In this document: positions 5,801 to 33,541 of the stretch, one piece after another
How positions within the stretch are numbered: position 1 is the stretch's first letter
Layout of the letters: every line of letters starts with the position of its first letter
From: an uncultured Clostridia bacterium
GTDB lineage: Bacteria; Bacillota; Clostridia; Christensenellales; DTU072
Length of the DNA stretch: 64,000 bases
Assembly (NCBI GenBank): GCA_944372095.1
Contig: CALVYG010000003.1
Span: 21,347-85,346 of the forward strand
Reading direction: 5' to 3'
Position numbers and translations under genes: made by a program
Notes under the pieces: model-generated
The model's input: only the letters and a program-made list of their open reading frames with translations
Databases searched by the model: none
What the model was told of the DNA's origin: nothing

Positions 5801-5817
5801 TTTTAATTTCCTCAATT

Positions 5818-12967: not shown

Positions 12968-12997
12968 ATCACTTACTTCTCCTGTCCCCTTATGCTA

Positions 12998-14743: not shown

Positions 14744-14767
14744 AACCAATTCCTCCGTTGAGATACT

Positions 14768-20300: not shown

Positions 20301-21258
20301 CGGGATGCATAGTAAGGAATTTCCCGAGAAGCGCGTAAAGCGACGCCAGCTCCGCCTCCAACAAAGCAATGTATTTTCTGTTAAAATTCTCTACTCTCCT
20401 GAATACGGATTCTAGCTGGCGCTCACCATTAGGCACGGACCTCATATAATCCGCTACGGCTTTACTTGAACCGAATTTTAGCGTGAGTTCGGCGTTAAAC
20501 TTCTCACTTGCCAAAACTATCTTCTCTGCCGTCGCGTCATACCTCAATCCGTCGATATCCAAACCCACATCACTGAAAGAATTTTTTAACGCGTCTATGA
20601 CGCAATATATATCCTTTTTGAAATAATTTATAAGTACTTCCGCAATATCTCTGCCCGAAGAATCATCTTGACTGTGCGTTATCGTAAGAACAGGAGCGGC
20701 TTCGTTCTCGGCTAAACGCGCTCCTTTCGTCGTTATTCCGAAACCGATTTCGCTTCTGAACGCCTCGAAAACGCTGATGTAAAAATCGCTAATACATGAA
20801 AGGCTCTTTACTTCGGGAAACGTCACGCCGTTTTGGGTATATTTCTTTATCCCGAATTTCTCTTCCAACTCGTATTCCCACTTGCGAGACATTATTTCAT
20901 TAGGCACGATTATGAGCAGTGACCTTAATTCGTTACGGCTTGCGAGTTCCGATATAATCATGCCCGCTTCTATCGTCTTTCCCATACCCACCTGATCGGA
21001 TAATATACCGCTCTTGTTCAAGTTGAATACAAAATCGTATACCGCTTCTTCCTGATAGGAATAGTAACTGTGATCGCTTTTCTGCCCGAACCAGTTAAAA
21101 CGGTTATAATAATCCTCTTTCAAACGCAATTCCTGCCTGCTTTCGACTTTGCTTACTTCTTTGAGCAGTTCAGTAATTCTATGAATTTGTTCTTCGCTCG
21201 AATCCTCTACCGCCGCCTTTTCGTGTTTCGGCATTTCAACATCGTATTCGCTTAACAT
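17365..21258 (-). CDS. SNF2/RAD54-family (superfamily 2) helicase-like ATPase, 1297 aa, with large insertions and a Cys-rich C-terminal module
   Basis: ATG 21258 with GGAGAAAA upstream. Motif I LSDQVGMGKTIEAG; Ia LLIIVPNEI; II VIVDEVHDY; III IFLTATPIKSDMVDFY; V-VI GVDLQKANTIINFDINYDPLKMEQRIGRIDRI. Confidence 0.9.
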   Translation of the reverse strand: MLSEYDVEMPKHEKAAVEDSSEEQIHRITELLKEVSKVESRQELRLKEDYYNRFNWFGQKSDHSYYSYQEEAVYDFVFNLNKSGILSDQVGMGKTIEAGMIISELASRNELRSLLIIVPNEIMSRKWEYELEEKFGIKKYTQNGVTFPEVKSLSCISDFYISVFEAFRSEIGFGITTKGARLAENEAAPVLTITHSQDDSSGRDIAEVLINYFKKDIYCVIDALKNSFSDVGLDIDGLRYDATAEKIVLASEKFNAELTLKFGSSKAVADYMRSVPNGERQLESVFRRVENFNRKYIALLEAELASLYALLGKFLTMHPEESARISGGLSKKYPILVVPISSTDSQTGATTPFLNHELAPEIKNYRHEYSTQDGEGIIPYYESYKVIDFFIDAAYQTVIVDEVHDYIDVRAKVNTDDFHLRQAEFVEKYPAKQFNRYELFDDYYFIEKTSLYKKLKDLADKAKRKIFLTATPIKSDMVDFYLLTLLACNKDAETYEVLSRDLDTADPKSIDDIRQSVYKCITEIAAEFFTDHHSEYLREAPKNSAGNKYAFPYMHTQYIEKNASDAENIKNYLLSHFSYMSINEVVMNLLSAYKLETKHEDGAIDQRLDDVNSLLLNDGILELMKGIEPTSDMRTRVVFRALLDNPIRLRFEEDFIGENNEPIKRIRDMLVLKDGPRRWYNTYRKYGIRHTRHQTYNLGNFPDASVTDMLKSGKMERYRNLPIWPKRNGNVIYLQRIDRFFDSYLTTRNKDISALHSGEVDIESLPNYGTLKGTEASKQKRFAAAKQLFAYINDSMSGGDEHHLPQHSYYESVQIGDENMIEYKLALVNKLMEGTDASLGNINNMVLLFADGRYRDIITKWFAYQGCSPLTEKLGAINESTKKKFDKAFERYGISSVKQSWRVSEQTDDINRYRGNLLVIIDPKRYEKGVDLQKANTIINFDINYDPLKMEQRIGRIDRIRPASQEQSINIISFVPLNDMSGFVINFFANEMLMFTQWMGETTGIVSVPEESRENVQTSEAKEDISFEGNVNKLEKFYLILYRLCTEEVDRTDIDHAADEFSAEFGTDKDFTKADFVYINAMRKVYEKMFVNSIYKGRRDDSDKDKVVRFNSRRNVFLDCSDARDCNKCPNYSQCKSEGGEGVVNSYSEFTKAAEKFAGESIKFYENMLSTLSARGTLVQGQDNKMSRQDAFFRSRRKEFEELKSKLKTNLKSDPMKPFVMTIKEFDAIMNPIKKLYWDDVVKRYIDRVLKQFYKQCDSVLESAAMFEKFIKTLSIAEFMSNMDENVEFDDEIITEE

Positions 21259-21280
21259 GATTTTCTCCGTTTTTGTTTTT

Positions 21281-22429
21281 TTATCGTGTTTTATTTTTTA
21301 TGAAGCCCGCACGCAAACTGCCTACATACAATTCGCCATTAAAGAGACTCACCTTATTGCTGGTCATTTCAAGGACGAAACTGCGTTCAGTAACCTCGCG
21401 CATCCTGTCTTTGTAGCGCCTTATAATTTCCGCTCTCGCATCGGTGATCTTGACGTAACGCAACTGTCTTTCGTTATCCTCCAATATAAGGTTAAAGTGT
21501 GCGTTTTCGTTAAACAGTTCGCCGTCCGACTGAGACTTAATCTCGGAAACGGGATAGGTATAGCACACCTTTTCCGAACCCGTATGCGATTTATAATATA
21601 CGTACAATACGTTATTAAAAGACTGTATCGTCGTTATATCGAAACCAACCTTAAAGCCAAATCGACACACACTCCCGGGATTCCCTAAACGCAATTTACA
21701 AACCCGGTTTTCGGATACCCAAAGTATATCGCCGCCGTCTGAAACTATAAGCGGTTCTCTGACAAACTCTCCGTTTTCGATATTAAATTCACCATTTCCT
21801 ATCATAACCGTTTCTATGCGGCGTTTGTCGGGTACAAAACGATAATACCCGAGTTTCTCGTCATGAATAACAAATATATTTGAACCTATACATGATACGA
21901 AACTGCTTGTCGCATACGTAGACGGGAGTTCGACGGCGGCCATGGGTTTAAGCTTTATCTTCCCCGCAATGTCTATTAAATAAACGGTAAGGTTGCACTT
22001 GTCTTTCTCCGAGGCGATTGCCACAAGATAGTACCCGACGCCTGTCTCCTGCGGAAGACATATGATACCCCATGCCCTAACGGTTTCTCCGGGATACAAC
22101 ACGCGATTGGCGTCATAGATAATATATCCGTTCGCATCCAACGCGAACACGGCACCGTTTAACCAAAGTTCGGGCAGACCTTCTTCGGACATGCGACGAC
22201 TGTAAACGTACCTGACGTCTCCGGGTCCTATGACGCAGTTATTCCCTATGTCGCCGTTTGTAAGCAGCCGGAACTTGCAATCAACAAGGGTATTTTTCCG
22301 ATCCACATATTGCTTCCAATCGTTAAACTCACCCACTATCTCCTGTCCGTATGCAGAAGAACGCACGCTAAGTTTCGACGTATAGAACAGCTTTTCTTTT
22401 TTAGTTGCTTTATAAAAGCATTTCAGCAT
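21281..22429 (-). CDS. Hypothetical beta-rich protein (382 aa), possibly propeller-like
   Basis: ATG 22429 with GGAGAGAGGA upstream. Gaps of 14 and 22 bp to its neighbours. I recognised no catalytic motif. Confidence 0.6.
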   Translation of the reverse strand: MLKCFYKATKKEKLFYTSKLSVRSSAYGQEIVGEFNDWKQYVDRKNTLVDCKFRLLTNGDIGNNCVIGPGDVRYVYSRRMSEEGLPELWLNGAVFALDANGYIIYDANRVLYPGETVRAWGIICLPQETGVGYYLVAIASEKDKCNLTVYLIDIAGKIKLKPMAAVELPSTYATSSFVSCIGSNIFVIHDEKLGYYRFVPDKRRIETVMIGNGEFNIENGEFVREPLIVSDGGDILWVSENRVCKLRLGNPGSVCRFGFKVGFDITTIQSFNNVLYVYYKSHTGSEKVCYTYPVSEIKSQSDGELFNENAHFNLILEDNERQLRYVKITDARAEIIRRYKDRMREVTERSFVLEMTSNKVSLFNGELYVGSLRAGFIKNKTR

Positions 22430-22443
22430 TGTCCTCTCTCCGC

Positions 22444-24978
22444 TCAGCCCCTCGTAATCATGATGTTTTCTCCGTAACGATCTTCATTTCTGAGTCCCCT
22501 GTTGTTTAGAAGAATTGTATATATATCCTGCTCGCTCCCCTCGGCAAATCTGCGCTTATAGTCGCACAGATCTTCTTTTGTAAAATAACTTGCCAACGGC
22601 GATTCCTTGCCGTTCAAGTCGAGCCTTTCTATTATAAACTGTTCCAATCGCCTGTTTATCGGTGCGTCTTTAAGCATTTCCAATGACATATATCCTTTAC
22701 TGTCAGTGGGTTTCATGATCTCGGCATAGCCGTAGCGATGCTCAATACAATATCTTTTCAATTCATCGTATTTATCTATGTTTAGATGATAAGCCGCAGT
22801 ACGGAAGTTTTTCATCTCTATTATGACAATTCTTCCTTTGTAGTCTTTCACAACAAAATCGGGATAATACTTGTGGTTTGCAAGCCTAGCAGAGACGTAT
22901 TCGAGCTCTGCGCTCTGTGCCTTAATGTCCGACAAAAATCCCGTTTTCGCCATAAGAGACGCAAACCTGCTCTCAAGAAAAGAGTCGCATTCAAGGGTTC
23001 TTATTTTGCCCGCGATGTCTACCTCGAGCGTGCAACGATGCTTTGTTGTCTCATCGTATTCTTTTTCTATGTCCGGAAACAGTTCGTCAAGATCCGCTTC
23101 GGGAACAATCTTTACGTTCTCGGGATATGTAATGAGCGACTCAATAAGACGGCACTTTTCCGAATCGGGAATCCGTGAAGCCACAATGCTGCGTTTTTCC
23201 CATCTTTGGTTGTTTTCTCCGCGAAGTCCTGCTTCCTCGGCGTTTTTTCCGTTAAGTTCGGCGTCCTCAAAATATTCACCCAAATTCTCTTCGAAATCAT
23301 CGTTATCGTACTCCGCATTGCCTAAGTCATTTAAGGTGTCTCCGGCGTCCTGTATATTCGTGTAATTTGTGCTTTCGGCATCTTTTTGTTGCATCGGCAA
23401 AGCATCGCTCGGGTCGGAGCTCTCAATTCCTCCTTCGTTGATAAAGTAATTATTTTTTTTTCCTGTCGAAATATTCGGATTGTCGCCGTCGCATGAAACG
23501 GGCGAATTTTTATCATCTTTAGCTGAATCTCCTAAGTCCTTTTTCTTGGCGGGGGGCGTCAATCCAAGCACTTCATATGCCTTTGGCATGGCTATGCGAC
23601 CCTGTGCCTGAATCATTAACAAGCCTTTTTTAATGAGATAAGCTTCATACTTTTGTTTGAGTACGTTATTGCTCTCGTTCATTGCTCTGGCGAGCGTATC
23701 GATACTGACGGGACCGCCGCCATACCTCTTGACGATAATGCCGAGCAATTGTCTGTCTCCCTCTTCAAGTCCGTACTTGTCTATACGGCTGCTCTTGAAG
23801 TATTCCTCAATAATGTCCGACGTAATTCTTATGTTACACTTGCGAATTTGTTCAACACTGTTGAAATGCCCCTGTAAGCGGATACCGTTTCTTTCGGCAT
23901 ACCTCACAAGCGCGTTACTGGATATCATGTTCACCATGTTGTTGGCAATCCTGGGATTATTTCTGCAACGCTTGGCTATACTCAAAGCGTCGGTGTCGTA
24001 TATACTCATGCCGCCGCGGTAAAATGATTTGGCGATAATTTGCGCAATCACATTGTCGTTGTATTCTTTAAGGCGCACAAGTATAGTGCGTTGAGTCAAC
24101 GGACCCGCAAGTTCTCCAAGCTCCGTTGTCGCACCGATGAGCGTAAAGGGCGGCAATTCTATCGTTTCTGTCCTTGCGAGTTTTCCTTTGCCCTCAGTAT
24201 ATGTAATGCAATGATCCTGCAACGCCGAATACAATAGCGACTCCGCAATTTCTTTGGGTAGCGTATGTATCTCGTCAATAAAAACTATATCTTTCGCTTT
24301 GAGAGATTTCAGCATGGCAAGCATACTGTTCATGTTTATGCCGTTTACATTGATTTCTTTGAGGCTCATCCCCATTTCATTGGCGATGATTCTCGCAAAC
24401 GTCGTTTTTCCTAAACCGTGCGACCCGTATAAAATCAAATGCGGCAATACCGTGTCCTTTAATTTGGCGGCGTTTATCAGCGTAGAAACACAGTTTACGG
24501 CATCGGATTGCCCGACATATTCCGATAACCATTGCGGCGCCATAGCGTTAAGTCTGCGGTTTTTCGGTCCATGCGATTGTTCCTTCTTTAACGGGTCTAC
24601 AATATCTATGGGTCTAAGCGACTTTCCGGTATCTTTTTGTGGCGTTTCTCTTCCATCTGCGTTGAACGATTTGTCAGATTTTTGAAAAAGCTCGTCAACC
24701 GTTTGATATTGCTTATCGGGTGCGCTATCCGCATCTCCTTTTTTTTCTTTTGCCGAATCGGCTTTAATTTTAGACTGAGCTTCATCGGCAAGCGACAGAC
24801 ACGAATTGTAGTAGCGCATATACTTTGCTCTGACTTCCCCGCCGGACAGGCTCGCTATGACCAACGCTATCTCGCATGCTTTTAGAAAGCATTTTCGCGC
24901 CCCGGCGTAATCGCCGTCGCGCATTTTTTCCTCCGCCTCGGTAAGAGATGATACTATTTGGCGTTCTTTATCCTGCAT
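22444..24978 (-). CDS. Fusion protein: N-terminal MIT-like domain + RuvB-like AAA+ ATPase with winged helix + C-terminal PD-(D/E)xK (TnsA-N/restriction-endonuclease-like) nuclease domain
   Basis: MIT-like: EAEEKMRDGDYAGARKCFLKACEIALVIASLSGGEVRAKYMRYYNSCLSLADEAQSKI. RuvB-like: HLILYGSHGLGKTTFARIIANEMG, IVFIDEIHTL, LPPFTLIGATTELGELAGPL, NPRIANNMVNMI, GLEEGDRQLLGIIVKRYGGGPVSIDTLARAM...YEAYLIKKGLL. Nuclease: YYPDFVVKDYKGRIVIIEMK (nt 22810-22869). Confidence 0.85.
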   Translation of the reverse strand: MQDKERQIVSSLTEAEEKMRDGDYAGARKCFLKACEIALVIASLSGGEVRAKYMRYYNSCLSLADEAQSKIKADSAKEKKGDADSAPDKQYQTVDELFQKSDKSFNADGRETPQKDTGKSLRPIDIVDPLKKEQSHGPKNRRLNAMAPQWLSEYVGQSDAVNCVSTLINAAKLKDTVLPHLILYGSHGLGKTTFARIIANEMGMSLKEINVNGINMNSMLAMLKSLKAKDIVFIDEIHTLPKEIAESLLYSALQDHCITYTEGKGKLARTETIELPPFTLIGATTELGELAGPLTQRTILVRLKEYNDNVIAQIIAKSFYRGGMSIYDTDALSIAKRCRNNPRIANNMVNMISSNALVRYAERNGIRLQGHFNSVEQIRKCNIRITSDIIEEYFKSSRIDKYGLEEGDRQLLGIIVKRYGGGPVSIDTLARAMNESNNVLKQKYEAYLIKKGLLMIQAQGRIAMPKAYEVLGLTPPAKKKDLGDSAKDDKNSPVSCDGDNPNISTGKKNNYFINEGGIESSDPSDALPMQQKDAESTNYTNIQDAGDTLNDLGNAEYDNDDFEENLGEYFEDAELNGKNAEEAGLRGENNQRWEKRSIVASRIPDSEKCRLIESLITYPENVKIVPEADLDELFPDIEKEYDETTKHRCTLEVDIAGKIRTLECDSFLESRFASLMAKTGFLSDIKAQSAELEYVSARLANHKYYPDFVVKDYKGRIVIIEMKNFRTAAYHLNIDKYDELKRYCIEHRYGYAEIMKPTDSKGYMSLEMLKDAPINRRLEQFIIERLDLNGKESPLASYFTKEDLCDYKRRFAEGSEQDIYTILLNNRGLRNEDRYGENIMITRG

Positions 24979-25014
24979 AATCTGTCCTTTATAAAACGCA
25001 CAACCGTCCGTGAA

Positions 25015-25599
25015 TTATTTATTTATTTCCTCACGGAGGCTTGCAAGTTTTTTCTCTATCTCGTCGTTGCTCATACCTGACTGACTTTTACCATATATTT
25101 TATTGTCAATCTCGGTATCGTCCACGTTGCTGATTTTATCCGCAAATACGCCGACCTCGTTTTGGTTAGATTCTAAAACTTCGATAACTTCCTCTGTTTG
25201 CGCGGTAACCTTTTCCATTGCTTCCTGAATTTCGTTCACAAACTTGCTCATATCCTCTGTGGTGTTTGCAGCAATACTTTTACCTATATCTCCAAGCGCA
25301 TGCACAAAATCTGTCGTCATTGCAGACATTTCTTTCATCTGCGATACAATTCTGAGATTGACCAGCATCGCAAACGTACGCTTCTTTTCCCCTATCGTCA
25401 ATTTGAGCGCTTTTTTAGCCAACTCAATCTGTTCCGGCAACGCTTCGCGCATGGCTACTTTGGCGGCATTGATATAAACTTGTTCCTGATCCTCGAGCTT
25501 TTTGATGCGCCTTTCAAGCTGGTTCATAGCCTTATTGACTGCCATTCTGCGCTCGCGCTCTTTTTCGGCCTTACTCTTAAACAAATTAGGTTTTTTCAT
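25015..25599 (-). CDS. Snf7/ESCRT-III-like (PspA/Snf7 superfamily) coiled-coil protein, 194 aa, with MIM1-like C-terminal helix
   Basis: AAGGAG SD. The helical pattern LERRIKKLEDQEQVYINAAKVAMRE..ELAKKALKLTIGEKKRTFAMLVNLRIVSQMKEMSAMTTDFVHALGDIGKSI..MSKFVNEIQEAMEKV aligns by eye with the CHMP/Snf7 core. The tail NDEIEKKLASLR fits (D/E)xxLxxRLxxL(K/R). Confidence 0.7.
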   Translation of the reverse strand: MKKPNLFKSKAEKERERRMAVNKAMNQLERRIKKLEDQEQVYINAAKVAMREALPEQIELAKKALKLTIGEKKRTFAMLVNLRIVSQMKEMSAMTTDFVHALGDIGKSIAANTTEDMSKFVNEIQEAMEKVTAQTEEVIEVLESNQNEVGVFADKISNVDDTEIDNKIYGKSQSGMSNDEIEKKLASLREEINK

Positions 25600-25655
25600 G
25601 TTTGCTCCTTAATAAATATTCAATATATACTTGTTGTTTTCGTTCGAACGAGCCT

Positions 25656-26825
25656 TTATGACTGATTGTCGGTTAAGCTTTGAACAAGCTCTTCCACAGT
25701 CGGCAGATCACATATTTTGAGCGTGGATAAAACGTTTTTATCGTTCAATTCTCTTACGGAAAGTTGTCCAAGCCTGATGTTCTGCCTTGCCATCATTTTC
25801 TCGAAAAGCATTCTGACATCCCTCGCGTTACCAAAGTATTTTCCCCTTGCGCTCTTAAGTTCCGCAAGACGATCGGTAATTGCCGTTCGGACAACCTCGG
25901 GGTCTTCCTCGAAAACAAATTTCTGTTTTTTGCAGAGTTTTATCAGAATGTTGTACATTTCTTTCGGGGCGTAATCTTCAAATTCAATCGTCCAATTAAA
26001 GCGGGAAGCAAAACCTACATTCGACTTCATGGCGGCATCCATTTCATCTGAATAACCTGCAAGTATCACCACAAAATCAGCACGGTTGTTTTCGACCGCG
26101 GTAAGCAAAACGTCTATTGCCTCCTTTCCGAAATCGCTTCCCGAATCAGCTTTATAAAGAGTATAAAACTCGTCGACAAACAATACTCCGCCTAAGGCCG
26201 AATCCACAACTTCCTGCGTCTGCTGAGCCGTATGCCCCACATACTTCCCTACTAGACCGACCCTTGCGTTTACTTCCACAAGGTGGCCTTTGCTAAGTAA
26301 CCCGAGCGCACTGAAAATATCACCCATAATTCTTGCAACGGTAGTTTTTCCTGTCCCGGGATTGCCCTTAAAAATCATGTGATTGGAAGAAGCATATATC
26401 GGAAGTCCCTGTTCTTCTCTAAACTTGTTTATGCGGATTTGCTGTATAATCTGCATAACCCTGTTTTTCACGTTATGAAGACCCTCGAGCGAATTAAGCT
26501 CTTCCAGCGCGCTTTCCAGCGAAGGCGCGGGTTTTGAGGACGAATCATCTGCTTTGGCATTGTTTTGTCCGCCTGTTTTCGCGCCGGCACAAGGGGTGGA
26601 CTTAACCACTTTACCGCCGACTTTATCTATCATATTCTTGATAGACATGGCTTGCTCGACATATGCCTGTCGCTCGCTTCCCGAAGACTGTTCCGCCAAA
26701 ACAACGGCGCTTTTCAGAGCGCGTTGCAAAAAAATCATTGCTTGATTATAATTATTTTGTTCAAGATATTTCAGCGCAGTCTCACGATTGGTGCGATATT
26801 CCTTCTTCAATTCTTCATTCGGCAT
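25656..26825 (-). CDS. MIT-like domain + AAA+ ATPase (SpoVK/CbbX/EccA-type core); Vps4-like architecture
   Basis: GGAGGG SD. N-terminus ALKYLEQNNYNQAMIFLQRALKSAVVLAEQSSGSERQAYVEQAMSIKNMIDKV has the MIT pattern, followed by a low-complexity linker. Then MIFKGNPGTGKTTVARIMG (Walker A), GGVLFVDEFYTL (Walker B), VVILAGY and GFASRF. Confidence 0.8.
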   Translation of the reverse strand: MPNEELKKEYRTNRETALKYLEQNNYNQAMIFLQRALKSAVVLAEQSSGSERQAYVEQAMSIKNMIDKVGGKVVKSTPCAGAKTGGQNNAKADDSSSKPAPSLESALEELNSLEGLHNVKNRVMQIIQQIRINKFREEQGLPIYASSNHMIFKGNPGTGKTTVARIMGDIFSALGLLSKGHLVEVNARVGLVGKYVGHTAQQTQEVVDSALGGVLFVDEFYTLYKADSGSDFGKEAIDVLLTAVENNRADFVVILAGYSDEMDAAMKSNVGFASRFNWTIEFEDYAPKEMYNILIKLCKKQKFVFEEDPEVVRTAITDRLAELKSARGKYFGNARDVRMLFEKMMARQNIRLGQLSVRELNDKNVLSTLKICDLPTVEELVQSLTDNQS

Positions 26826-26843
26826 TACGATTCCCTCCGAAAA

Positions 26844-27458
26844 CTAATTGAGTCCGTTCATCTTCTTCAATTCCGACAGTTCATTATCGAAAGATTTGTT
26901 CTCGTCGCGAACATTTTCAACAGAAATTTCTTCGGCGGACGACGTTGCGTCTTTGATTAAAGCTTCGACTTCGGGATCGACTTCAAACTGCATAGACATC
27001 GCATCCATTCCGTCGTAAGCAGCCTCCTGATTTGCCGTGCTTTCTTCTAGTCGATGCCATATATCATCTACTTTCCCCATTCCCGCAAATATATTGATAT
27101 CTTTAAAAAGATTTTGCATGCGCTTACTCACGTTATCAATAACAGACGGAAGCGAATCGTCTTGCTGTTGCTCGTAAATCATAAGCATCATTTCCGCCTG
27201 AGGTATGAATTGCTGCGCACGCATAATGGCATTGACCGTAATTTTAAGCGATTTTGCGGCAATGTTATAAATTATAGGATCCTTTTTTTGCTTTGCCTGA
27301 CGGCAAATCTCAATCATTTTATCCCTAACGCTTTCAAGCTTTCCGATTTGATTGGAAACTTTTCTGATTTCCAACCTTGTCGAGGCTTTGACTTGCAAAA
27401 CACCGGACAAATCGTCGGTGGGTCCGATATCCTTTTTATCCTTATTAAAAAAAGCCAT
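26844..27458 (-). CDS. Snf7/ESCRT-III-like coiled-coil protein, 204 aa, with acidic region and MIM1-like tail
   Basis: AGGAGA SD. Core: EIRKVSNQIGKLESVRDKMIEICRQAKQKKDPIIYNIAAKSLKITVNAIMRAQQF...VIDNVSKRMQNLFKDI. Acidic stretch: DPEVEALIKDATSSAEE. The tail NKSFDNELSELK has hydrophobics at positions 4/8/11 and K at 12. Confidence 0.65.
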   Translation of the reverse strand: MAFFNKDKKDIGPTDDLSGVLQVKASTRLEIRKVSNQIGKLESVRDKMIEICRQAKQKKDPIIYNIAAKSLKITVNAIMRAQQFIPQAEMMLMIYEQQQDDSLPSVIDNVSKRMQNLFKDINIFAGMGKVDDIWHRLEESTANQEAAYDGMDAMSMQFEVDPEVEALIKDATSSAEEISVENVRDENKSFDNELSELKKMNGLN

Positions 27459-27476
27459 ATTTCTCCTAAAATAATA

Positions 27477-28127
27477 TTATTGTTTATTCATTTTGTTCAA
27501 ACGGTCTATAGTATCCTGCAAATCCTTATCGTAAAATTCTTTTGAACTTCCCGCTGAGTTTGAGATGCCGGAACTACCGTATTTTGCGTTAATTAACCCA
27601 TCGACAAGCGGGTCCGATTCAAAATTGTCGAAAGTTTCCGAAGAAAATTCGGGCATCATCGCGTCAATTTGCATCTGCCACTCTTCAATATACTGTTGTT
27701 GCATCTCCATATCGGCGTTCATTTTCATAACATTGTTCTCGAATTCGCGCTGAGCGGACGGGTCGTACAGGAATTTCCCAGCACCGTTAATTATAGTGCT
27801 CATCGACTTATTAATCTCTTTGCAGGACGCACTCATTTCCCCCATCGCCATAACGATATCGATCTGCCCCAACACGCGCTCAAGCATCTTTTTTCTTCTC
27901 AGCGCAACTTTGACAACCGATGCGTATTGCTTATACATCATACCGTTTGAGGCACGCTTTGCTTCCGCAGCTTTATCAACGCACTCTTCGAGTTTTTTTT
28001 CAGCTTTGCCGAGTTCTGCCACAACTTTTGCGCGTTCGGTTTTAGCCGCAGTCCTGTCACGGATTTCGGCTTGGGCCTTAGCTTGCTCTTCTTCTGCACG
28101 CTTTTTCTTACTCTTAACCCAAATCAT
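27477..28127 (-). CDS. Snf7/ESCRT-III-like coiled-coil protein, 216 aa (CHMP1-like pattern), with MIM1-like tail
   Basis: AAGGAGA SD. Core: KKLEECVDKAAEAKRASNGMMYKQYASVVKVALRRKKMLERVLGQIDIVMAMGEMSASCKEINKSMSTII...REFENNVMKMNADMEMQQQYIEE. Tail: DKDLQDTIDRLNKMNKQ. Confidence 0.7.
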   Translation of the reverse strand: MIWVKSKKKRAEEEQAKAQAEIRDRTAAKTERAKVVAELGKAEKKLEECVDKAAEAKRASNGMMYKQYASVVKVALRRKKMLERVLGQIDIVMAMGEMSASCKEINKSMSTIINGAGKFLYDPSAQREFENNVMKMNADMEMQQQYIEEWQMQIDAMMPEFSSETFDNFESDPLVDGLINAKYGSSGISNSAGSSKEFYDKDLQDTIDRLNKMNKQ

Positions 28128-28172
28128 ATTGTCTCCTTGTTTGATTCTCCGTTTAGTCTTTGCATAACCTGA

Positions 28173-29075
28173 CTAATTGTCGTTCCTTATCGCCTGTTTG
28201 AAAGAAGAACGGGATTCCTCTTTTTCTTCGACTTCGAAATTTCTGAACGCCTTATTTAGTTCATTGTCTTTTTCCGCATTTATAGCATTCTTGAACGAAG
28301 ACTGTGTCTCCGAACGATTCCTGGAATCGGACGCAGAATATATATTCTTTTCATTATCATCAATAAGCTCCGTTTTTTCGATAAATGTAGCTTTTTTGAT
28401 ATTGAGTTCTTCCACACGCTTAGCAAAAACCTCCGGACTTGTTACCATTGAGCCATCTATTCTTTCCAAAGCATCCATCTGCCCGTCCAAAGAAATTGCC
28501 GCAAGGTTAGCGTTGTACGCTTTTACGGAAAGTAAAACGATTTCTTTTAAATTTTTAACTTGTTTGTCATATTTGTTATATTGCGTTTCGATTCTTACAA
28601 ATTCTGCACTACCTTCGGCCAAATCTTTACCTTTGAGCATTAACTCTCGCATTAAAGCTTCGAGTTCGGCTTGTTTGTTGAGATTGTCATCGATTTCTCC
28701 GACAAGAGTGGCTTGCTTGCGCTTTATTTGAATCTGCTCGTCCGTGTACAGCTCGGAGCCATGCTTGCGCGAATCATAGACAGCCTCCTTTAGCATCTCG
28801 GCACATTGGGCAAACTCTGCATCTTTCCCCGCCCTACAAAGATTGCTCATATCTCCAATAAGTTCGGAAATGCGCTTATCAATAGCTGCTTGCTTTTTGG
28901 GATTGGCATTTTTGGGACAATTCACTTTGTCCAAAAGACGAAGTATGACATTAAGATACTTTATCGTCCCATAGTTATGTTTTTCGTGCATTTCTGCAAT
29001 AAAATCGTTAACGCTTGCTTTGAATTCTATCGTATTTTTTTTGAATTTTTTTTCATAACCGAAAAGTGGTAACAT
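28173..29075 (-). CDS. Coiled-coil protein (300 aa), possibly a fourth, divergent PspA/ESCRT-III-like subunit or adaptor
   Basis: AGGAGAAA SD. Long heptad-like central region (aa ~100-230). The C-terminal tail carries a duplicated motif, SSFKNAINAEKDN / SSFKQAIRNDN. Confidence 0.6.
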   Translation of the reverse strand: MLPLFGYEKKFKKNTIEFKASVNDFIAEMHEKHNYGTIKYLNVILRLLDKVNCPKNANPKKQAAIDKRISELIGDMSNLCRAGKDAEFAQCAEMLKEAVYDSRKHGSELYTDEQIQIKRKQATLVGEIDDNLNKQAELEALMRELMLKGKDLAEGSAEFVRIETQYNKYDKQVKNLKEIVLLSVKAYNANLAAISLDGQMDALERIDGSMVTSPEVFAKRVEELNIKKATFIEKTELIDDNEKNIYSASDSRNRSETQSSFKNAINAEKDNELNKAFRNFEVEEKEESRSSFKQAIRNDN

Positions 29076-29096
29076 TTTTATTTCTCCTATATTCTA

Positions 29097-30071
29097 TTAT
29101 TTAGAAAGCTTTGCGCCGCATTTGGAGCAAAAATTGGTGCCTTTTTTGTACTTTGTACCGCACTCAGAACAATAAACAACATAATTGTCCGCATTGCCGC
29201 GTCTTTTATCGTCACAATCATTGTCGCGTTCGTCCGTACTGAATGTCTTTCCGTTCGTTTTATAAACAATTTTACTTTCGGAGTTCTGTGCGAGATAAAA
29301 CGGCATCATCGCGTCGACGTTTTTTTTCAAAACATCGGCATCGGAGAAGCGTCCTCTATTTTCGTTGATAGTTATCTCCGTCGACATCTTCGCACTATTC
29401 AAACGCGCACGATTTCTCGTATGCTCCGGAGAGTAGTCGAAACAGTCGATTACAAAATCCATAATGGTCAGTCCGTTAGCAACGAAACGCTTATTGAGGT
29501 CGCTTTTAATTTCTTCGGCGCATGCAAGCATTTTGGTCTGAGCCTCGATCATATCGCAGGAAGCCGCAAGAGCGGCGATCCTTGAAAGTATTACCGCGCT
29601 TGCCTCTGTACGTAAATAATCTCTCACCGACGATTTGGTTATGACGCCGTTGTCGGCATATGGCATGGAACTGACAAAACTGTAATAGTTGTCGATGACA
29701 AACTTATACTTGCCGCGAGCAATAGCGGTACAATCCACGCCGAAATCAGGATCAAAACACTTTACGGCATTAGGCCCGGCAAGTCCCCATTCCGCGTCAA
29801 AGAAAGAATTTTGATCTACTGCGTCTATGGAAATACTTTCGGATGGATAAGGCTTATTTCCGCCTATAATTTTTTTATCATTCTTATTAAACAAACCGTA
29901 AATTGTAGAAACCTTCCCGCCCATAAGCGTCTGAACTCCGCCTTCTGCTTTGACTATAAGGGTAATTCCGACATCGGGTTTAAGCACCGTATTGGGAGAT
30001 GCCCCTACTGCGGACACTTTCCAGCAAACAATTTCATCACGGAATCTTTTTTCAACTTTGATTTCAGTCAC
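29097..30071 (-). CDS. SPFH (Band-7_1 / B. subtilis YdjI-like) domain protein with C-terminal zinc ribbon
   Basis: The track ORF extends to ATG 30104, but GTG 30071-30069 lies 8 nt after GGGAGG (30080-30085). Colinear from memory with YdjI: ARGKYKFVIDNYYSFVSSM, VRDYLRTEASAVILSRIAAL, AEEIKSDLNKRFVANGLTIMDFVIDCFDYSPE. C-terminus: YCSECGTKYKKGTNFCSKCGAKL. Confidence 0.75.
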   Translation of the reverse strand: MTEIKVEKRFRDEIVCWKVSAVGASPNTVLKPDVGITLIVKAEGGVQTLMGGKVSTIYGLFNKNDKKIIGGNKPYPSESISIDAVDQNSFFDAEWGLAGPNAVKCFDPDFGVDCTAIARGKYKFVIDNYYSFVSSMPYADNGVITKSSVRDYLRTEASAVILSRIAALAASCDMIEAQTKMLACAEEIKSDLNKRFVANGLTIMDFVIDCFDYSPEHTRNRARLNSAKMSTEITINENRGRFSDADVLKKNVDAMMPFYLAQNSESKIVYKTNGKTFSTDERDNDCDDKRRGNADNYVVYCSECGTKYKKGTNFCSKCGAKLSK

Positions 30072-30165
30072 AATAAATACCTCCCGAATTGATTGTACAT
30101 GCAAACAAGGGCGGCACTAAAGAAAAAACAAAACCCCCTCATCCGTGTCTTGCAAAACTTTTTTT

Positions 30166-30194
30166 ATTATATCAACACGCGCGTTTTTTGTCAA
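30166..30194 (-). promoter_or_regulatory. Consensus sigma-A-type promoter in front of the 15-gene array
   Basis: Minus strand reads TTGACA (30194-30189), then 17 nt, then TATAAT (30171-30166). It lies about 95 nt upstream of the GTG at 30071. Confidence 0.65.
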
Positions 30195-30626
30195 TAAAAG
30201 TCGACGACGTTTATCAAATTTTATACCATAATGAATAGAAATACTTATAAATTATGATTATGTTGATATTATTGCGTTTAGAACTTCTCGTGCATGCATG
30301 CGCACGAAAAGACTTAGCTTTATACAAACGGTGGGTCTTATAATGGAAATATATCTACAATTCAAAAATTTGAAAAAAGTAAGTATATATAAAAAAATAT
30401 GCAAATTCAAAGACAAACGCTGACGATAGGGTTATAAGTGTTCTCGTTCATATCAACCACTTCTTTGATCTCTTCCGAAATGGAGATGGATTGGTTGATC
30501 TTATCCATACCCAATTCGTCGATCATGGTAAAGATGTGATGCTCCTTTTCCATGCGTATCGCTTCGGCGGTCTCTTTCCGCGATTACAGTTTATTCGAGT
30601 TATCCCCTTGTCTCCACCACAAACAG

Positions 30627-30657
30627 AAAACACCGCAAATTAAGCGGTGTTTTTTTA
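30627..30657 (+). terminator. Orphan intrinsic-terminator-like hairpin
   Basis: aaaACACCGC-aaattaa-GCGGTGTttttttt. The T-tract is on the plus strand, and a weaker TTTTCTGTTT tract is on the minus strand. No convincing gene lies upstream on either strand. Confidence 0.5.
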
Positions 30658-30830
30658 TGACAAAGGGATGAGAACCCCTGATAAAATTCGCAAGTTTACT
30701 CATTGCGCAATTTTGACAATGGTTATTAAATACTGGTTAAATTCGTTTGTCCTAAAATAAGAAATTCGCTCAGACTTTCAATAAAATGTAACTTTTTCCT
30801 CTTCTCTTTATGCTTTTTCTTCTTTTTGCG

Positions 30831-30859
30831 TTGCAAAATCTTCTCTTTTTTTCTATAAT
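30831..30859 (+). promoter_or_regulatory. Sigma-A-type promoter of the Na+ transporter gene
   Basis: TTGCAA (30831-30836), then 17 nt, then TATAAT (30854-30859). It lies inside the 5' extension of track ORF 30810..32246, which argues for the ATG at 30894. Confidence 0.6.
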
Positions 30860-30893
30860 ACCTTTGTATCAGCTTTTTTACAAAGGATTTTTT

Positions 30894-32246
30894 ATGAAAC
30901 ACGTTCGCTCCGCTAAAAATAATTGGTCCGGTAGATTCGGGTTCCTTATGGCTGCCGTCGGCTCCGCCGTCGGTATCGGAAATATCTGGCGCTTCCCTTA
31001 TGTCGCCGGTCAGCAAGGCGGCGCCGTTTTCTTGATTGTTTATGTCGCTATGATTGTTTTTATCGGCTTCTCCGCTATGATTGCAGAATTCGCTATCGGC
31101 AGAAATGCCGCCAGTAACGTTATCGACGCTTTCTCTTCTCAGAAAAAAGCCTGGGGAATTGTCGGTATTTTAAGCTGTATCGTTTCTTTTATTATCGTTT
31201 CTTACTATTCCGTTATCGGCGGTTGGGTCATTCGCTACGCCGTCGGTTATATCGCAGGCGGTAACTTCGTCGCCGACGCAGATTATTCCATCGCTTTCTC
31301 TTCCTTCGTTTCCAACCCCTATTTGCCGATTATTTTTACTTTCGTTTTTATGGCTCTCTGTTTCCTTATTCTTATGTTCGGCGTTCAGAAAGGTATCGAA
31401 AGAGTTAATAAGATTCTTATGCCGATGCTTTTTATTATGTTGGTCTTTGTTATGATTGTTTCTTTGACTATGGACGGCGCAAAACAGGGGGTTGAATTCT
31501 TTATCGTTCCCGATATTAACAGAATCGAAGCTTCCGGCGGTATTGTCGGTATTCTCCTCGCAGCTTTGGGACAGTCTTTTTATTCTCTTTCTATCGGTAT
31601 CGGTATCGGCACTACTTACGGTTCCTATGCCCGTAAAGATGTCAGCCTTACTCAGAACACAGCTATAATTTGCATTTCCGATACGCTTGTTGCAGTTGTG
31701 GCGGGGTTTGCCATTCTTCCCGCAGTTTTTGCCGCAGGTCAGGAACCCACTGCCGGCGCAGGCCTTATTTTCGTCACTTTGCCGGCTGTTTTCGCTTCTC
31801 TTCCTCACGTCCTAGGTATGATTGTCGGCGCTGTTTTCTTCCTTCTCGTTTTCTTTGCCGCTCTCACTTCCGCCATCGCTCTTATCGAAGTCAACGTCGC
31901 AGTCCTCTCGGAAAAACTTAAACTTAACCGAAAACTCGCCGTTGCCATTGTCGTTCTTGCCGCTTTTTTCCTGGCAATTTTCGTTTCTCTTTCTCAGGGC
32001 GCTGTCGAAATGTTCGACCTTCTTAATATCCTTGACGTTTTCTCAAACACCTTTATGCTTCCCTTAATAGGAATACTTACTTGTATCTATGTGGGTTTCG
32101 TCTGGAAAACTCAGAATGCCGTTAAAGAAATTTCTCTTTCCGGTCCGTTCAAATTGGCAAAAATATGGGCTTTCAACATTAAGTTTATTTGCCCCGTCTT
32201 TATCGGCGCTCTCTTTGTTTACGGAATAGTTTCCTTATTTATCTGA
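30894..32246 (+). CDS. Sodium-dependent transporter, neurotransmitter:sodium symporter (SNF/NSS) family
   Basis: MKHVRSAKNNWSGRFGFLMAAVGSAVGIGNIWRFPYVAGQQGGAVFL is the NSS signature. About 11-12 hydrophobic helices. AAAGGA SD 6 nt before ATG 30894. Confidence 0.9.
   Translation: MKHVRSAKNNWSGRFGFLMAAVGSAVGIGNIWRFPYVAGQQGGAVFLIVYVAMIVFIGFSAMIAEFAIGRNAASNVIDAFSSQKKAWGIVGILSCIVSFIIVSYYSVIGGWVIRYAVGYIAGGNFVADADYSIAFSSFVSNPYLPIIFTFVFMALCFLILMFGVQKGIERVNKILMPMLFIMLVFVMIVSLTMDGAKQGVEFFIVPDINRIEASGGIVGILLAALGQSFYSLSIGIGIGTTYGSYARKDVSLTQNTAIICISDTLVAVVAGFAILPAVFAAGQEPTAGAGLIFVTLPAVFASLPHVLGMIVGAVFFLLVFFAALTSAIALIEVNVAVLSEKLKLNRKLAVAIVVLAAFFLAIFVSLSQGAVEMFDLLNILDVFSNTFMLPLIGILTCIYVGFVWKTQNAVKEISLSGPFKLAKIWAFNIKFICPVFIGALFVYGIVSLFI

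Positions 32247-32302: not shown

Positions 32303-33541
<1,239 letters not shown>

Follow-up and report, generated by a model that had tools for sequence, protein, structure and literature searches.

Organization of the operon

The window (the whole 64,000-nucleotide stretch of DNA that was analyzed) contains a gut Clostridia operon with genes for three ESCRT-III (Snf7/CHMP-like) proteins, designated E3a, E3b and E3c, and for two ATPases with a MIT-like N-terminus, designated AAA389 and RuvB844; all of the features described here lie on the minus strand. A sigma-70 promoter (TTGACA-17-TATAAT with TG) at 30166-30194 matches the consensus at 12/12 positions, is the sole perfect sigma-70 site within 12500-31000 and, judged by that match, is the likely start of the operon. 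The first gene, at 29097-30104, encodes an SPFH/Band-7 protein with a C-terminal zinc ribbon (Pfam Band_7_1, E 5.6e-6; Zn_Ribbon_1, E 2e-7), and a gene of this kind also heads related loci; on conspecific contigs the protein has been called as 324 aa. It is followed by CC300 (28173-29075), a 300-aa coiled-coil protein with an invariant N-terminal LFGY motif (residues M1, L4, F5, G6 and Y7), which is present in one to three tandem copies in related loci. CC300 gave no match in a Pfam search, and no homology to the E3a family was detectable.

Next come E3c (216 aa, 27477-28127), E3b (204 aa, 26844-27458), AAA389 (25656-26825), E3a (194 aa, 25015-25599) and RuvB844 (22444-24978). AAA389 joins a MIT-like three-helix domain (residues 1-76; 26598-26825) to a SpoVK/CbbX/EccA-type AAA+ ATPase, while RuvB844 consists of a second such domain (residues 1-72; 24763-24978), a RuvB-like AAA+ module with a winged helix, and a C-terminal region bearing a PD-(D/E)xK motif. 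Beyond these lie a conserved 382-aa protein (21281-22429), which is syntenic in related loci L002, L006 and L007 and found no match in family searches, and a 1297-aa SNF2-family helicase of the DrmD/DpdE/BrxH type (17365-21258; Pfam SNF2-rel_dom and Helicase_C). Two more syntenic genes occupy 12998-17368, encoding proteins of 866 aa (14768-17368) and 583 aa (12998-14749); in L002 and L006-L008, tblastn finds matches to both on the 3' side of the SNF2 gene, and neither protein has a match in Pfam or PADLOC.

Three ESCRT-III paralogs

A profile built from 101 diverse relatives of E3a matches CHMP2A (E 5.2e-8) and CHMP3 (E 5e-5) and has no PDB matches to PspA or Vipp1; Pfam Snf7 is matched by 21 of the 101 family members and PspA_IM30 by none. 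E3a alone stays below the Snf7 cut-off (E 0.0019; 18.3 bits, cut-off 27.3). Its AF2 model, with helices at residues 10-51, 55-112, 118-144, 146-156, 161-169 and 178-193, has the hairpin and the alpha3-alpha6 layout. CdvB provides the top Foldseek matches of this model, the E-values for the ESCRT-III fold being above 0.1, a level to be expected of helical folds that are small or extended; the closest structural relatives are CHMP2A, CHMP3 and CHMP1B. Assignment of the E3a family to ESCRT-III (Snf7/CHMP), and not to PspA, is supported. The family is patchily distributed, with 554 representative clusters among 1.84 billion representatives. The N-terminal LFKSK motif is invariant in the E3a alignment and is likely the membrane anchor of E3a-type proteins.

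The preliminary description had reported three Snf7-like paralogs, each ending in a helix. The tails are present as quoted there, and, on hhalign comparison of profiles, the three proteins are paralogs: E3c aligns with the E3a family over its full length (probability 96.9%, E 1.8e-10, 191 columns), and E3b aligns with the E3c family (96.2%, E 2.7e-9, 199 columns) and with E3a (67.7%, E 4.9e-5). Homologs of E3c also match the E3a HMM, with E about 1e-6. Both E3b and E3c are fast-evolving. Homologs of E3b form only two clusters in 5.8 billion proteins, and none was found by tblastn of loci L001-L008 and L033; E3b is an extra, lineage-specific copy.

C-terminal tails

All three tails reach the stop codon of their gene. 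The E3a helix, NDEIEKKLASLREEINK (25018-25068), is MIM1-like, while those of E3b, NKSFDNELSELKKMNGLN (26847-26900), and E3c, DKDLQDTIDRLNKMNKQ (27480-27530), are candidate MIT-interacting motifs. As originally noted, each is preceded by a low-complexity or acidic linker -- GKSQSGMS in E3a, TSSAEEISVENVRDE in E3b and GSSGISNSAGSSKEFY in E3c -- and in E3a residues 172-177 of this linker are predicted to be disordered (pLDDT below 50). The tails are short, charged amphipathic helices. Their mean hydrophobicity lies between -0.27 and -0.58, they contain just 3-4 apolar residues each, and they are rich in D, E and K; since they are hydrophilic overall, a protein-protein motif fits them better than a lipid-binding helix.

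A hydrophobic 4-8-11 pattern is found in the last 32 residues of 99 of 116 diverse E3a-family representatives, about 16 standard deviations above the 31 +/- 4 (maximum 44) obtained in 200 shuffles of the tails. L185 of E3a is invariant across alignment A1, and the family logo reads D1-x-[ED]-[ILV]4-[ED]-x-x-[LI]8-x-x-[LIV]11-x-K-x-[LI]15. The E3b and E3c tails are retained in homologs at 24-61% identity; an E3b homolog of 50% identity keeps SDNDLTELKKLAGLN, and in 9/9 E3c homologs the core hydrophobic-x-x-[LYF]-x-x-[ML]-[LVN] lies at the extreme C-terminus. The preliminary description had held that loss of the tails among homologs would count against it; they are conserved, so it does not fail on that ground. 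Its MIM1 label fares less evenly. The 4-8-11 spacing stands for the E3a family, but the charged positions taken to define MIM1, Arg7 and Lys/Arg12, are not conserved there (K/R occurs at position 7 in 40/98 members and at position 12 in 32/98), and in E3c-type tails the conserved hydrophobics are shifted to 8/11/14-15. A strict MIM1 reading of these sequences is thus weak. In addition, each of the three paralogs has, ahead of its tail, a second conserved C-terminal element (alpha5), [ST]D-x-E-[IL]-[DE]-x-[LM]-I, which could be the true MIT contact instead of the tail.

MIT-like domains and their ATPases

The MIT-like domain of AAA389 is modeled by AF2 (pLDDT 86.7) as three helices, at residues 2-22, 26-46 and 49-76, and the first 22 Foldseek PDB matches of the model are all MIT domains (TM-scores reaching 0.89, rmsd 1.1 A); their E-values exceed 0.04, again as helical folds of small size or extended shape would lead one to expect. 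By hhalign the AAA389 domain is related to the MIT domains of Vps4-architecture ATPases that adjoin E3a relatives elsewhere (95.7%, E 9e-9), as is the RuvB844 domain (97.4%, E 9e-12), and the two domains of the operon are homologous to each other (97.4%, E 1e-11), in agreement with the two MIT-like N-termini initially proposed. The RuvB844 N-terminus also matches the MIT HMM at E 1e-21. The Vps4-architecture proteins also carry AAA, AAA_lid_3 and Vps4_C domains, and one of them matches Pfam MIT (E 2.8e-5); the profile of their N-termini matches the MIT domains of Chs1, VPS4B and Sulfolobus Vps4 over the full length. Pfam MIT itself matches neither the AAA389 nor the RuvB844 N-terminus, both having weak TPR_2 matches only, and small profiles of the two domains themselves have no significant match to PDB MIT domains, so that MIT membership of both rests on transitive homology and fold.

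The AAA389 motor matches NCBIfam spore_V_K (E 2.4e-76) and CbbX (E 2.8e-69), Pfam AAA and AAA_lid_6, and, in PDB, CbbX (E 1.2e-55) and EccA1 (E 2.6e-44); its NCBIfam scores are all far under the equivalog cut-offs (256 vs 423 bits for SpoVK). The motor has intact Walker motifs, A (GNPGTGKTT) and B (VLFVDEF). AAA389 is not an ortholog of Vps4; its motor is SpoVK/CbbX/EccA-type. RuvB844 matches Pfam RuvB_N (E 1.9e-41) and RuvB_C (E 1.8e-15), scoring 275 bits with NCBIfam RuvB against a cut-off of 282. The PD-(D/E)xK motif, YYPDFVV...IIEMK, spans residues 704-723 (22810-22869), in a C-terminal region with weak endonuclease matches.

Related loci and genomic context

Thirty-three loci with an E3a relative have been collected from Clostridia, Planctomycetota (which supply many of them), Bacteroidaceae and Hydrogenedentes, and 30 of the 33 include an ORF with an N-terminal MIT domain. 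Among the top 150 E3a-family representatives, 17 have the ESCRT-III domain fused to another C-terminal region, MIT being present in none; partners in the fusions scanned were RuvB, RuvB plus NERD, and FtsK, the FtsK/SpoIIIE fusions including the FtsK_alpha domain. RuvB-type motors are seen with either an N-terminal MIT domain, as in the window, or an N-terminal ESCRT-III domain and no MIT. Because the ESCRT-III-RuvB and ESCRT-III-FtsK fusions retain the tail helix, the tail has a further role independent of recruiting the fused motor. Fusion-bearing locus L023 still encodes two MIT-AAA ATPases, which could make use of the retained tail. The operon immediately follows ftsA-ftsZ in loci L009 and L012.

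The SNF2 helicase matches DrmD in NCBIfam (E 1.2e-30) and PADLOC (E 4e-27), with strong DrmD/DpdE/BrxH matches and weak ZorD matches, and L002 and L006-L008 have syntenic counterparts of 46-47% identity. PADLOC matched no other operon component except for weak AAA matches. Sister loci encode BrxL-like, ZnR-TIR, ZnR-trypsin and kinase proteins, and related loci also SNF2 and nuclease proteins; these effector genes suggest a membrane-linked defense system. On conspecific contigs GmrSD, or a MTase together with a PDDEXK gene, is inserted directly upstream of the operon, and the neighboring site is a defense hotspot.

Proposed mechanism and alternatives

We regard this region, with moderate confidence, as the core of a bacterial system built on ESCRT-III, in which the tails dock MIT ATPases. 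E3a, E3b and E3c would co-polymerize on the inner membrane face via their LFK-type N-termini, and the C-terminal helices would act as MIT-interacting motifs, docking both MIT-bearing enzymes on the polymer. AAA389 would replace Vps4 as the remodeling or disassembly motor, and RuvB844 would combine a RuvB-like DNA motor with a PD-(D/E)xK nuclease in one protein, with the SNF2 helicase following. More speculatively, and judging by genomic context, the whole module may be a membrane-coupled system of defense or conflict, delivering DNA-processing effectors to a site on the membrane. Docking of the two ATPases on a single polymer is plausible; the gene order, E3c-E3b-MIT-SpoVK and then E3a-MIT-RuvB, equally allows cognate ESCRT-III/ATPase pairs. 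The computable evidence, all of it indirect, points towards MIT-tail recruitment: the tails and MIT-like N-termini first observed are confirmed, and the MIT-MIM recruitment proposed from them is partly supported. According to recent reviews, bacteria do not have such an arrangement of ESCRT-III proteins with docking-type tails and MIT ATPases, and a description of an ESCRT-III/MIT-ATPase system was not found in the searchable literature.

It is rather unlikely that the terminal helices instead act inside the ESCRT-III polymer, within one subunit or between subunits (in autoinhibition or lateral contacts), or bind another product of the operon such as the SPFH protein or CC300, with MIT recognizing another part of the polymer, such as the alpha5 motif, or something else. 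Such roles would agree with the conserved alpha5 motif of all three paralogs, the unconserved MIM1 salt-bridge positions, the differing hydrophobic register of the E3c tails, and retention of the tail in fusions to RuvB and FtsK though the motor is already tethered; however, the two MIT-AAA ATPases kept in L023 could use that tail, the tails lie at the extreme C-terminus beyond a disordered linker, like MIMs, and E3a is structurally closest to CHMP2A, CHMP3 and CHMP1B, the eukaryotic subunits with MIM1. That the helices bind membrane, like Vipp1 helix H7, sensing or stabilizing stressed membrane, seems very improbable given their few apolar residues and D/E/K-rich composition, the family's matches to CHMPs and not to PspA or Vipp1, and the invariant LFKSK motif as the likely anchor, even though an SPFH protein is encoded alongside and C-terminal helices of the ESCRT-III/PspA superfamily, to which these proteins belong, can bind lipid.

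That the likeness is purely fortuitous, the proteins being generic coiled coils and the ATPases an unrelated, functionally unlinked pair capped by generic TPR-like helices, is already disfavored and hardly credible. The window proteins do fall under the Pfam cut-off for Snf7 and have no Pfam MIT match, and small helical folds yield many weak matches; against this stand the family-level CHMP2A match, the exclusively MIT top fold matches, the gene pair kept in 30/33 loci across phyla, the excess of the tail pattern over shuffles, and the exchange of MIT for ESCRT-III on RuvB motors, which argues for a link. At the level of the whole system, a role not in immunity but in membrane abscission coupled to DNA clearing or transfer (division, sporulation-type engulfment or DNA-containing vesicles) is on balance unlikely; the RuvB-nuclease and SNF2 proteins would then serve to remove or shift DNA where a membrane neck closes. 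Fusion to FtsK/SpoIIIE DNA pumps, FtsK_alpha included, the position behind ftsA-ftsZ in two loci and the many Planctomycetota loci all favor it, but the patchy distribution, the variable, defense-typical accessory genes (TIR, BrxL-like, trypsin-like, kinases, DrmD-like SNF2), the adjacent hotspot and the fast evolution of E3b and E3c do not.

Comparison with known systems

The docking system favored here has a close parallel in the archaeal and eukaryotic ESCRT-III/Vps4 machineries (CdvB/CdvC; CHMP2/3/1-VPS4), in which several Snf7-family paralogs are likewise encoded together. Its best relatives are CHMP2A, CHMP3, CHMP1B and CdvB, with which it shares an LF-K type N-terminus, a flexible linker leading to a terminal amphipathic helix (acidic at 1/3/5, hydrophobic at 4/8/11) and partner ATPases that begin with a MIT three-helix bundle, and sister loci have the true Vps4 architecture. 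It differs in having a bacterial host, in carrying MIT on a SpoVK/CbbX-type AAA+ and a RuvB-nuclease rather than a Vps4-type AAA, in the unconserved Arg7 and Lys/Arg12 of the E3a family, and in being linked to enzymes that act on DNA, namely SNF2, the nuclease and the FtsK/RuvB fusions; genes for ESCRT-I/II or CdvA were not seen. The archaeal 'Meth_adaptin' systems bring together ESCRT-III, an ATPase resembling Vps4 and an SPFH protein with coiled-coil and zinc-ribbon parts (Makarova et al. 2024, PMC10936438), and the present operon is also headed by an SPFH-zinc-ribbon protein, but no adaptin-appendage, GOLD or ProX was seen here, and the ATPase types and DNA-processing partners differ.

Bacterial PspA/Vipp1 (IM30) systems with SPFH partners, such as B. 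subtilis pspA-ydjGHI, belong to the same superfamily and are similarly associated with SPFH/Band-7 proteins, but the E3a family matches Snf7/CHMP (21 vs 0 of 101 members for PspA_IM30), and PspA systems are said to be without a Vps4-like partner (PMC7619361). Occasional bacterial Snf7/PspA-AAA+ neighborhoods are mentioned by Ravi et al. 2024 (PMC11237479), the searched passages of which do not mention MIT-bearing SpoVK/RuvB ATPases or tail motifs. Zorya and other membrane-anchored defense systems offer a functional analogy only: they too pair a membrane-associated module with a SNF2-family helicase and a nuclease, but there are no MotAB-like ZorAB proteins here, the membrane module is ESCRT-III/SPFH, and the components are not in PADLOC. 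The AAA389 motor falls within the CbbX/SpoVK/EccA clade, though its N-terminal MIT domain and ESCRT-III neighborhood are foreign to those families. CbbX works by gripping its substrate at the C-terminal tail, and an N-terminal TPR-type helical domain is found in EccA; in concept, both are close to a tail-recruited remodeler.

Organization of the operon

The ESCRT-III genes and the MIT ATPases sit within one long minus-strand operon. Reading away from a putative sigma-70 promoter with a perfect consensus match (window positions 30194-30166, minus strand), the genes, all on the minus strand, are SPFH-ZnR, an SPFH/Band-7 protein with a C-terminal zinc ribbon (29097-30104, 335 aa); the coiled-coil protein CC300 (28173-29075, 300 aa); the ESCRT-III-like paralogues E3c (27477-28127, 216 aa) and E3b (26844-27458, 204 aa); AAA389, an MIT-like domain joined to a SpoVK/CbbX-type AAA+ (25656-26825, 389 aa); E3a, of the Snf7/CHMP type of ESCRT-III (25015-25599, 194 aa); RuvB844, with an MIT-like domain, a RuvB-like AAA+ and a nuclease motif (22444-24978, 844 aa); P382 (21281-22429, 382 aa); SNF2, a DrmD-like helicase (17365-21258, 1297 aa); and P866 and P583 (together 12998-17368, 866 and 583 aa). 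Flanking genes at 32303-33469, 6608-12967 and 1634-5815 encode a collagen-like Gly-X-Y repeat protein, which in conspecific contigs gives weak or faint matches to Pfam Collagen and a Pel9A-like beta-helix, and two very large surface proteins carrying BspA-type LRR, MBG and Listeria-Bacteroides repeats. All of these, including the large BspA-LRR/MBG surface-protein genes further downstream, are probably unrelated to the system and outside it.

Each ESCRT-III gene shares its reading frame with the gene that follows: E3c with E3b, E3b with AAA389, and E3a with RuvB844 (junctions at 27459-27479, 26826-26846 and 24979-25017). Translation of the latter two junctions gives one stop codon and 6-12 codons between the genes. 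The shared frame could be chance, at about 1 in 27; occasional read-through to a fusion of an ESCRT-III subunit and the following gene product is conceivable, since natural ESCRT-III-RuvB fusions exist elsewhere.

The ESCRT-III-like proteins

Taken at the level of its family, and judged by sequence and by the layout of its predicted fold, E3a is a member of ESCRT-III/Snf7. The single sequence stays below the 27.3-bit cut-off of Pfam Snf7 (PF03357; E 0.0019, 18.3 bits) and reaches CHMP2A at a sub-threshold E of 0.025. The A11 profile, an alignment of 101 diverse relatives, matches CHMP2A at E 5.2e-8, CHMP3 at 5e-5 to 7e-4, CHMP1B at 0.017 and CdvB at 0.095, and gives no match to PspA/Vipp1 in the PDB. 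Pfam Snf7 is matched individually by 21 of the 101 members at E<=0.01 (best 9.6e-7) and PspA_IM30, also in Pfam, by none. The family is small but real: an index of 5.8 billion proteins holds 21 clusters, and a full HMM search raises the number to 554 representative clusters. A mobile-element origin was rejected, as relatives of E3a are absent from the phage, plasmid and IMG/VR collections.

In the AF2 model of E3a (pLDDT 77), helices 10-51 and 55-112 pair in a long hairpin. Helices 118-144, 146-156 and 161-169 come next, and the last helix, 178-193, is set off from them by a disordered stretch. This is the ESCRT-III layout of a long alpha1-alpha2 hairpin, alpha3-alpha5 and a C-terminal alpha6. 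Its best Foldseek matches in the PDB are S. islandicus CdvB (prob 0.97), followed by CHMP1B, CHMP2A-CHMP3 and Asgard ESCRT-IIIB, all at a non-significant E>=0.12, as commonly happens with extended helical proteins.

E3b and E3c are placed in ESCRT-III solely by hhalign to E3a and E3c. By this measure E3c and E3a are paralogues along their full length (96.9%, E 1.8e-10), while E3b has its paralogue in E3c (96.2%, E 2.7e-9) and is more distantly related to E3a (67.7%). Common to the three proteins are an LF-type N-terminus, the alpha5 motif [ST]DxE[IL][DE]x[LM]I, a linker and a terminal helix.

The adjacent CC300 was considered as a fourth ESCRT-III protein and rejected for now, at an hhalign probability of 0.9% against the E3a family. 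Its own family, found as 1-3 tandem copies (loci L002, L005, L006, L007, L008 and L033), has an invariant N-terminal M-x-x-LFGY-x-K that resembles ESCRT-III N-termini; the window copy begins MGLFGY. Distant loci carry a second helical protein of about 200 aa, which begins in the MGLL or MGIW manner, ends in an acidic tail and is encoded immediately before the E3a or MIT-AAA gene (L010:9356-9991, L009:9382-10008, L024:8122-8739, L028:5383-6000, L030:3114-3722). The 'MGLL...' protein was considered as an E3c orthologue, but resembles E3c only weakly (hhalign 46%, against 1% for E3a), with no PDB matches; it may be a divergent second ESCRT-III subunit.

MIT-like domains and their motors

The preliminary description had proposed MIT-like N-termini on two proteins of the operon, and this is borne out by hhalign homology and by the AF2 fold of the AAA389 domain. 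Over their first ~75 residues AAA389 and RuvB844 can be aligned gap-free, and the alignment extends to the N-termini of ATPases encoded downstream of E3a homologues in other bacteria, a group of Vps4 architecture (AAA, AAA_lid_3 and Vps4_C). In profile-profile comparison of these groups, AAA389 matches the Vps4-type group at 95.7% (E 9e-9), RuvB844 matches it at 97.4% (E 9e-12), and RuvB844 matches the AAA389 group at 97.4% (E 1e-11). The N-terminal profile of the Vps4-type group in turn matches, over their full length and at E 7e-5 to 3e-3, the MIT domains of Chs1 (chitin synthase 1; 7e-5), VPS4B/SKD1 (8e-4) and Sulfolobus Vps4, and one of its members reaches Pfam MIT at E 2.8e-5 (24.6 bits, below the cut-off of 30). 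Neither window protein matches Pfam MIT (PF04212), TPR_2 alone appearing at E 0.03-0.3; against the PDB, the AAA389 subgroup profile by itself finds consensus-TPR designs and nothing else, and that of RuvB844 finds the Chs1 MIT weakly (E 0.066). Since these small profiles are weak on their own, the window domains are assigned to MIT through their hhalign link to the Vps4-type group and through fold. AF2 models residues 1-85 of AAA389 (pLDDT 86.7) as a bundle of three helices for which Foldseek ranks 1-22 in the PDB are all MIT domains (E 0.04-0.4), among them those of Sulfolobus Vps4, MITD1, katanin p60, VPS4A/B, yeast Vps4, spartin and NRBF2. The comparison with the MIT of S. acidocaldarius Vps4 gives a TM-score of up to 0.79/0.89 and an rmsd of 1.1 A. 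We conclude that both window ATPases carry predicted domains of MIT fold, with homologues at the N-termini of Vps4-like enzymes. In some conspecific contigs the RuvB-like gene is called 18 residues shorter (826 aa; L036:10676-13156, and the proteins P0189, P0193 and P0198), which would cut off part of MIT-like helix 1; this is either a difference in start codon or mere gene calling.

From their domain content, neither of the two window motors is a Vps4, whose architecture (MIT, a classical AAA with AAA_lid_3, and a Vps4_C helix) is found in neither. AAA389 has AAA and AAA_lid_6 and is a member of the SpoVK/CbbX/EccA clade. RuvB844 matches Pfam RuvB_N at E 1.9e-41 and RuvB_C at E 1.8e-15, scores 275.2 against the NCBIfam RuvB cut-off of 282, and has as extras the N-terminal MIT and a C-terminal PD-(D/E)xK motif at residues 704-723; no ruvA was identified by Pfam or NCBIfam among the operon genes scanned. 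Judged on these features, RuvB844 is a paralogue that resembles RuvB and is distinct from the housekeeping enzyme. The full Vps4 architecture is present in the sister loci L009, L010, L014, L023 and L024, with Vps4_C scoring up to 25.8 bits (cut-off 21.3); by phmmer the AAA domain of these ATPases is closest to Cdc48/p97.

C-terminal tails

The tails of E3a (NDEIEKKLASLREEINK, nt 25018-25068), E3b (NKSFDNELSELKKMNGLN, nt 26847-26900) and E3c (DKDLQDTIDRLNKMNKQ, nt 27480-27530), all on the minus strand, had been reported as MIM1-type helices. The tails themselves were confirmed as quoted, each reaching the stop codon and ending within 0-5 residues of it, and the linker described before each is indeed Ser/Gly-rich or acidic in all three proteins; in the E3a model the linker has a pLDDT below 50 and is followed by the helix at 178-193. 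The match to MIM1 stands as regards the extreme C-terminal helix after a linker and the 4-8-11 spacing, but Arg7 and Lys/Arg12 are not conserved family-wide. When homologous tails are aligned, L185 (MIM position 8) is invariant in 17 E3a relatives with identities down to 32%, the flanking pattern being retained, and the hydrophobic 4-8-11 pattern occurs within the last 32 residues in 99 of 116 near-full-length representatives of E3a-family clusters at 50% identity, versus 31+-4 (maximum 44) in 200 shuffles. Position 1 is D or E in 61/98 of the family and position 3 in 63/98; unbiased features of the tail are D at 1, D/E at 3 and 5, K at 13 and L/I at 15.

Positions 7 and 12 define eukaryotic MIM1. 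K or R is found at position 7 in 40/98 members of the E3a family and at position 12 in 32/98, where E is the commonest residue; in the window, positions 7 and 12 are K and R in E3a, E and K in E3b, and T and N in E3c. A strict MIM1 assignment is therefore rejected, and the tails are best named MIM1-like. The tails of E3b (F4, L8, L11) and E3c (L4, I8, L11) fit the hydrophobic spacing. The E3b tail is retained in all three sequences available, and nine E3c homologues have, at the extreme C-terminus, conserved hydrophobic residues at 8, 11 and 14/15, with position 4 hydrophobic in 3/9; conservation in these two proteins rests on 3 and 9 sequences because the homologue searches gave two clusters each. 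All three tails are hydrophilic overall, which argues against lipid-binding helices. They are MIM1-like candidate MIT-docking helices, and reading them as a recruitment signal is partly supported.

Related loci and fusions

When one genome was scanned for each species, E3a relatives turned up in 33 loci, spanning Clostridia, Planctomycetota, Bacteroidaceae, Hydrogenedentes and others, and the whole operon is reproduced in the close ones. By MIT-domain HMM, 30 of the 33 have an ORF with an N-terminal MIT, usually adjoining the E3a homologue; several have two, in the order ESCRT-III gene, MIT-ATPase, ESCRT-III gene, MIT-ATPase.

Long fusion proteins make up 17 of the best 150 E3a-family representatives; in them the ESCRT-III domain and tail are followed by a low-complexity linker and a further C-terminal region (a genomic example lies at L023:8024-9835). 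In the ten scanned with Pfam this region is RuvB or RuvB+NERD (P0077, P0085, P0174, P0121) or FtsK/SpoIIIE (P0099, P0119, P0129, P0128, P0167). The linkers are rich in Pro, Ser and Gln; the RuvB-like motor sometimes comes with the NERD nuclease, and the FtsK/SpoIIIE DNA pump with an FtsK_alpha domain. With an MIT HMM that scores the window controls at 1e-22, none of the 17 has an MIT domain. RuvB motors are thus either covalently joined to ESCRT-III or provided with an N-terminal MIT, giving two modes of attachment within the E3a family. This swap, seen in sequence comparison, is the strongest indirect support for the candidate MIT-tail recruitment, for which the adjacency of the genes in 30 of the 33 loci is indirect evidence as well; the swap would speak to attachment between MIT and ESCRT-III, not to the tail as the contact site.

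Possible function

Genomic context leads us to favour, loosely, a role in defence. The SNF2 protein of the operon resembles DrmD, DpdE and BrxH. Sister loci include genes for a BrxL-like ATPase (E 1.7e-116), for Ser/Thr kinases, and for zinc-ribbon proteins of two kinds, one with TIR and the other with a trypsin protease. PADLOC and PHROGs gave nothing specific beyond the SNF2 helicase and generic AAA matches. In conspecific contigs, either GmrSD or a methyltransferase with a PDDEXK gene occupies the position immediately upstream of the operon. A 2025 paper (PMC12065111) reports that many BrxL proteins end in MIT_C, a domain of PLD fold that also belongs to MITD1, a eukaryotic protein that binds ESCRT-III; taken with the BrxL-like gene beside the ESCRT-III/MIT-AAA genes of L009, this is a hint that ESCRT-binding modules and BREX-type components have an older connection. 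The ESCRT-III-FtsK fusions of the E3a family, and the position of the operon beside ftsA-ftsZ in L009 and L012, suggest instead membrane abscission coupled to DNA handling; the adjacency may point to a connection with cell division, or a single lineage may simply have them side by side by coincidence.

Several observations on these surroundings can be added. In simpler ESCRT-III/MIT-AAA operons of other bacteria the partner genes vary (L009:12035-15618; L016:6430-8160 and 9436-10281; L023:6681-7997; L024:14521-15960; L027:10586-12763) and are of types typical of defence systems; the BrxL-like ATPase is without a matched Lon protease domain, and one kinase has an FGE-sulfatase domain and another an RDD domain. 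The variable spot in the conspecific contigs is the gap between an SNF-family symporter gene and the operon, equivalent to window positions ~30200-30800 (L034:2402-4789, L035:3120-4760): one strain has GmrSD type IV restriction there, another a D12 methyltransferase and PDDEXK, and the window has neither. In L009 (5647-8097) and L012 (17-1009), two related Clostridiales MAGs, an SPFH/ESCRT-III/MIT-AAA operon lies directly downstream of apparent ftsA and ftsZ genes, called from N-terminal sequences alone.

The defence reading can be put as a mechanism, which we offer tentatively and as rather doubtful in its entirety: these would be unrecognised bacterial ESCRT-III systems in which an ESCRT-III/SPFH polymer bound to the membrane takes on interchangeable enzymes by an MIT-tail docking code, providing membrane-coupled immunity against invading DNA. 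The recruited enzymes would include the Vps4-architecture AAA, the SpoVK-type AAA and the RuvB-nuclease; in some members DNA motors (RuvB, FtsK) are fused straight to the ESCRT-III subunit. Such systems would span ~550 sequence clusters, drawn from Clostridia, Planctomycetota, Bacteroidota and further phyla.

Comparison with known systems

A 2025 review states that a Vps4-like ATPase appears to be absent in bacteria (PMC7619361). Ravi et al., 2024 (PMC11237479) report occasional bacterial neighbourhoods of Snf7/PspA and AAA+ genes and transfers of Vps4-like ATPases, and no mention of the ESCRT-III/MIT-ATPase architecture was found in the passages searched; nor was a description of such a system found in the searchable literature, subscription-only papers excepted. 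Taken more widely, what emerges is a family of bacterial ESCRT-III/MIT-ATPase systems whose motors are swapped and whose partners are DNA enzymes: the operon and its relatives combine true Snf7/CHMP-type subunits, conserved C-terminal helices of a docking type and adjoining MIT-domain ATPases.

If the helices bind MIT, the logic of ESCRT recruitment was not invented by archaea and eukaryotes, non-orthologous AAA+ motors can stand in for Vps4, and ESCRT-III polymers can be platforms for DNA-processing or immune effectors. Were the joint reading as an immune device true, the MIT-MIM network would predate the archaeal-eukaryotic ESCRT machinery, reach beyond it and be tied to bacterial defence modules (BrxL-like, TIR, DrmD-like SNF2). 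The system offers a compact bacterial model for studies of MIT-MIM specificity and ESCRT-III remodelling. Across the window operon and its relatives the MIT domain is borne by three different motor classes; in Vps4 it is carried on a classical AAA, whereas in the window it is found instead on a SpoVK/CbbX-type AAA+ and on a RuvB-type motor.
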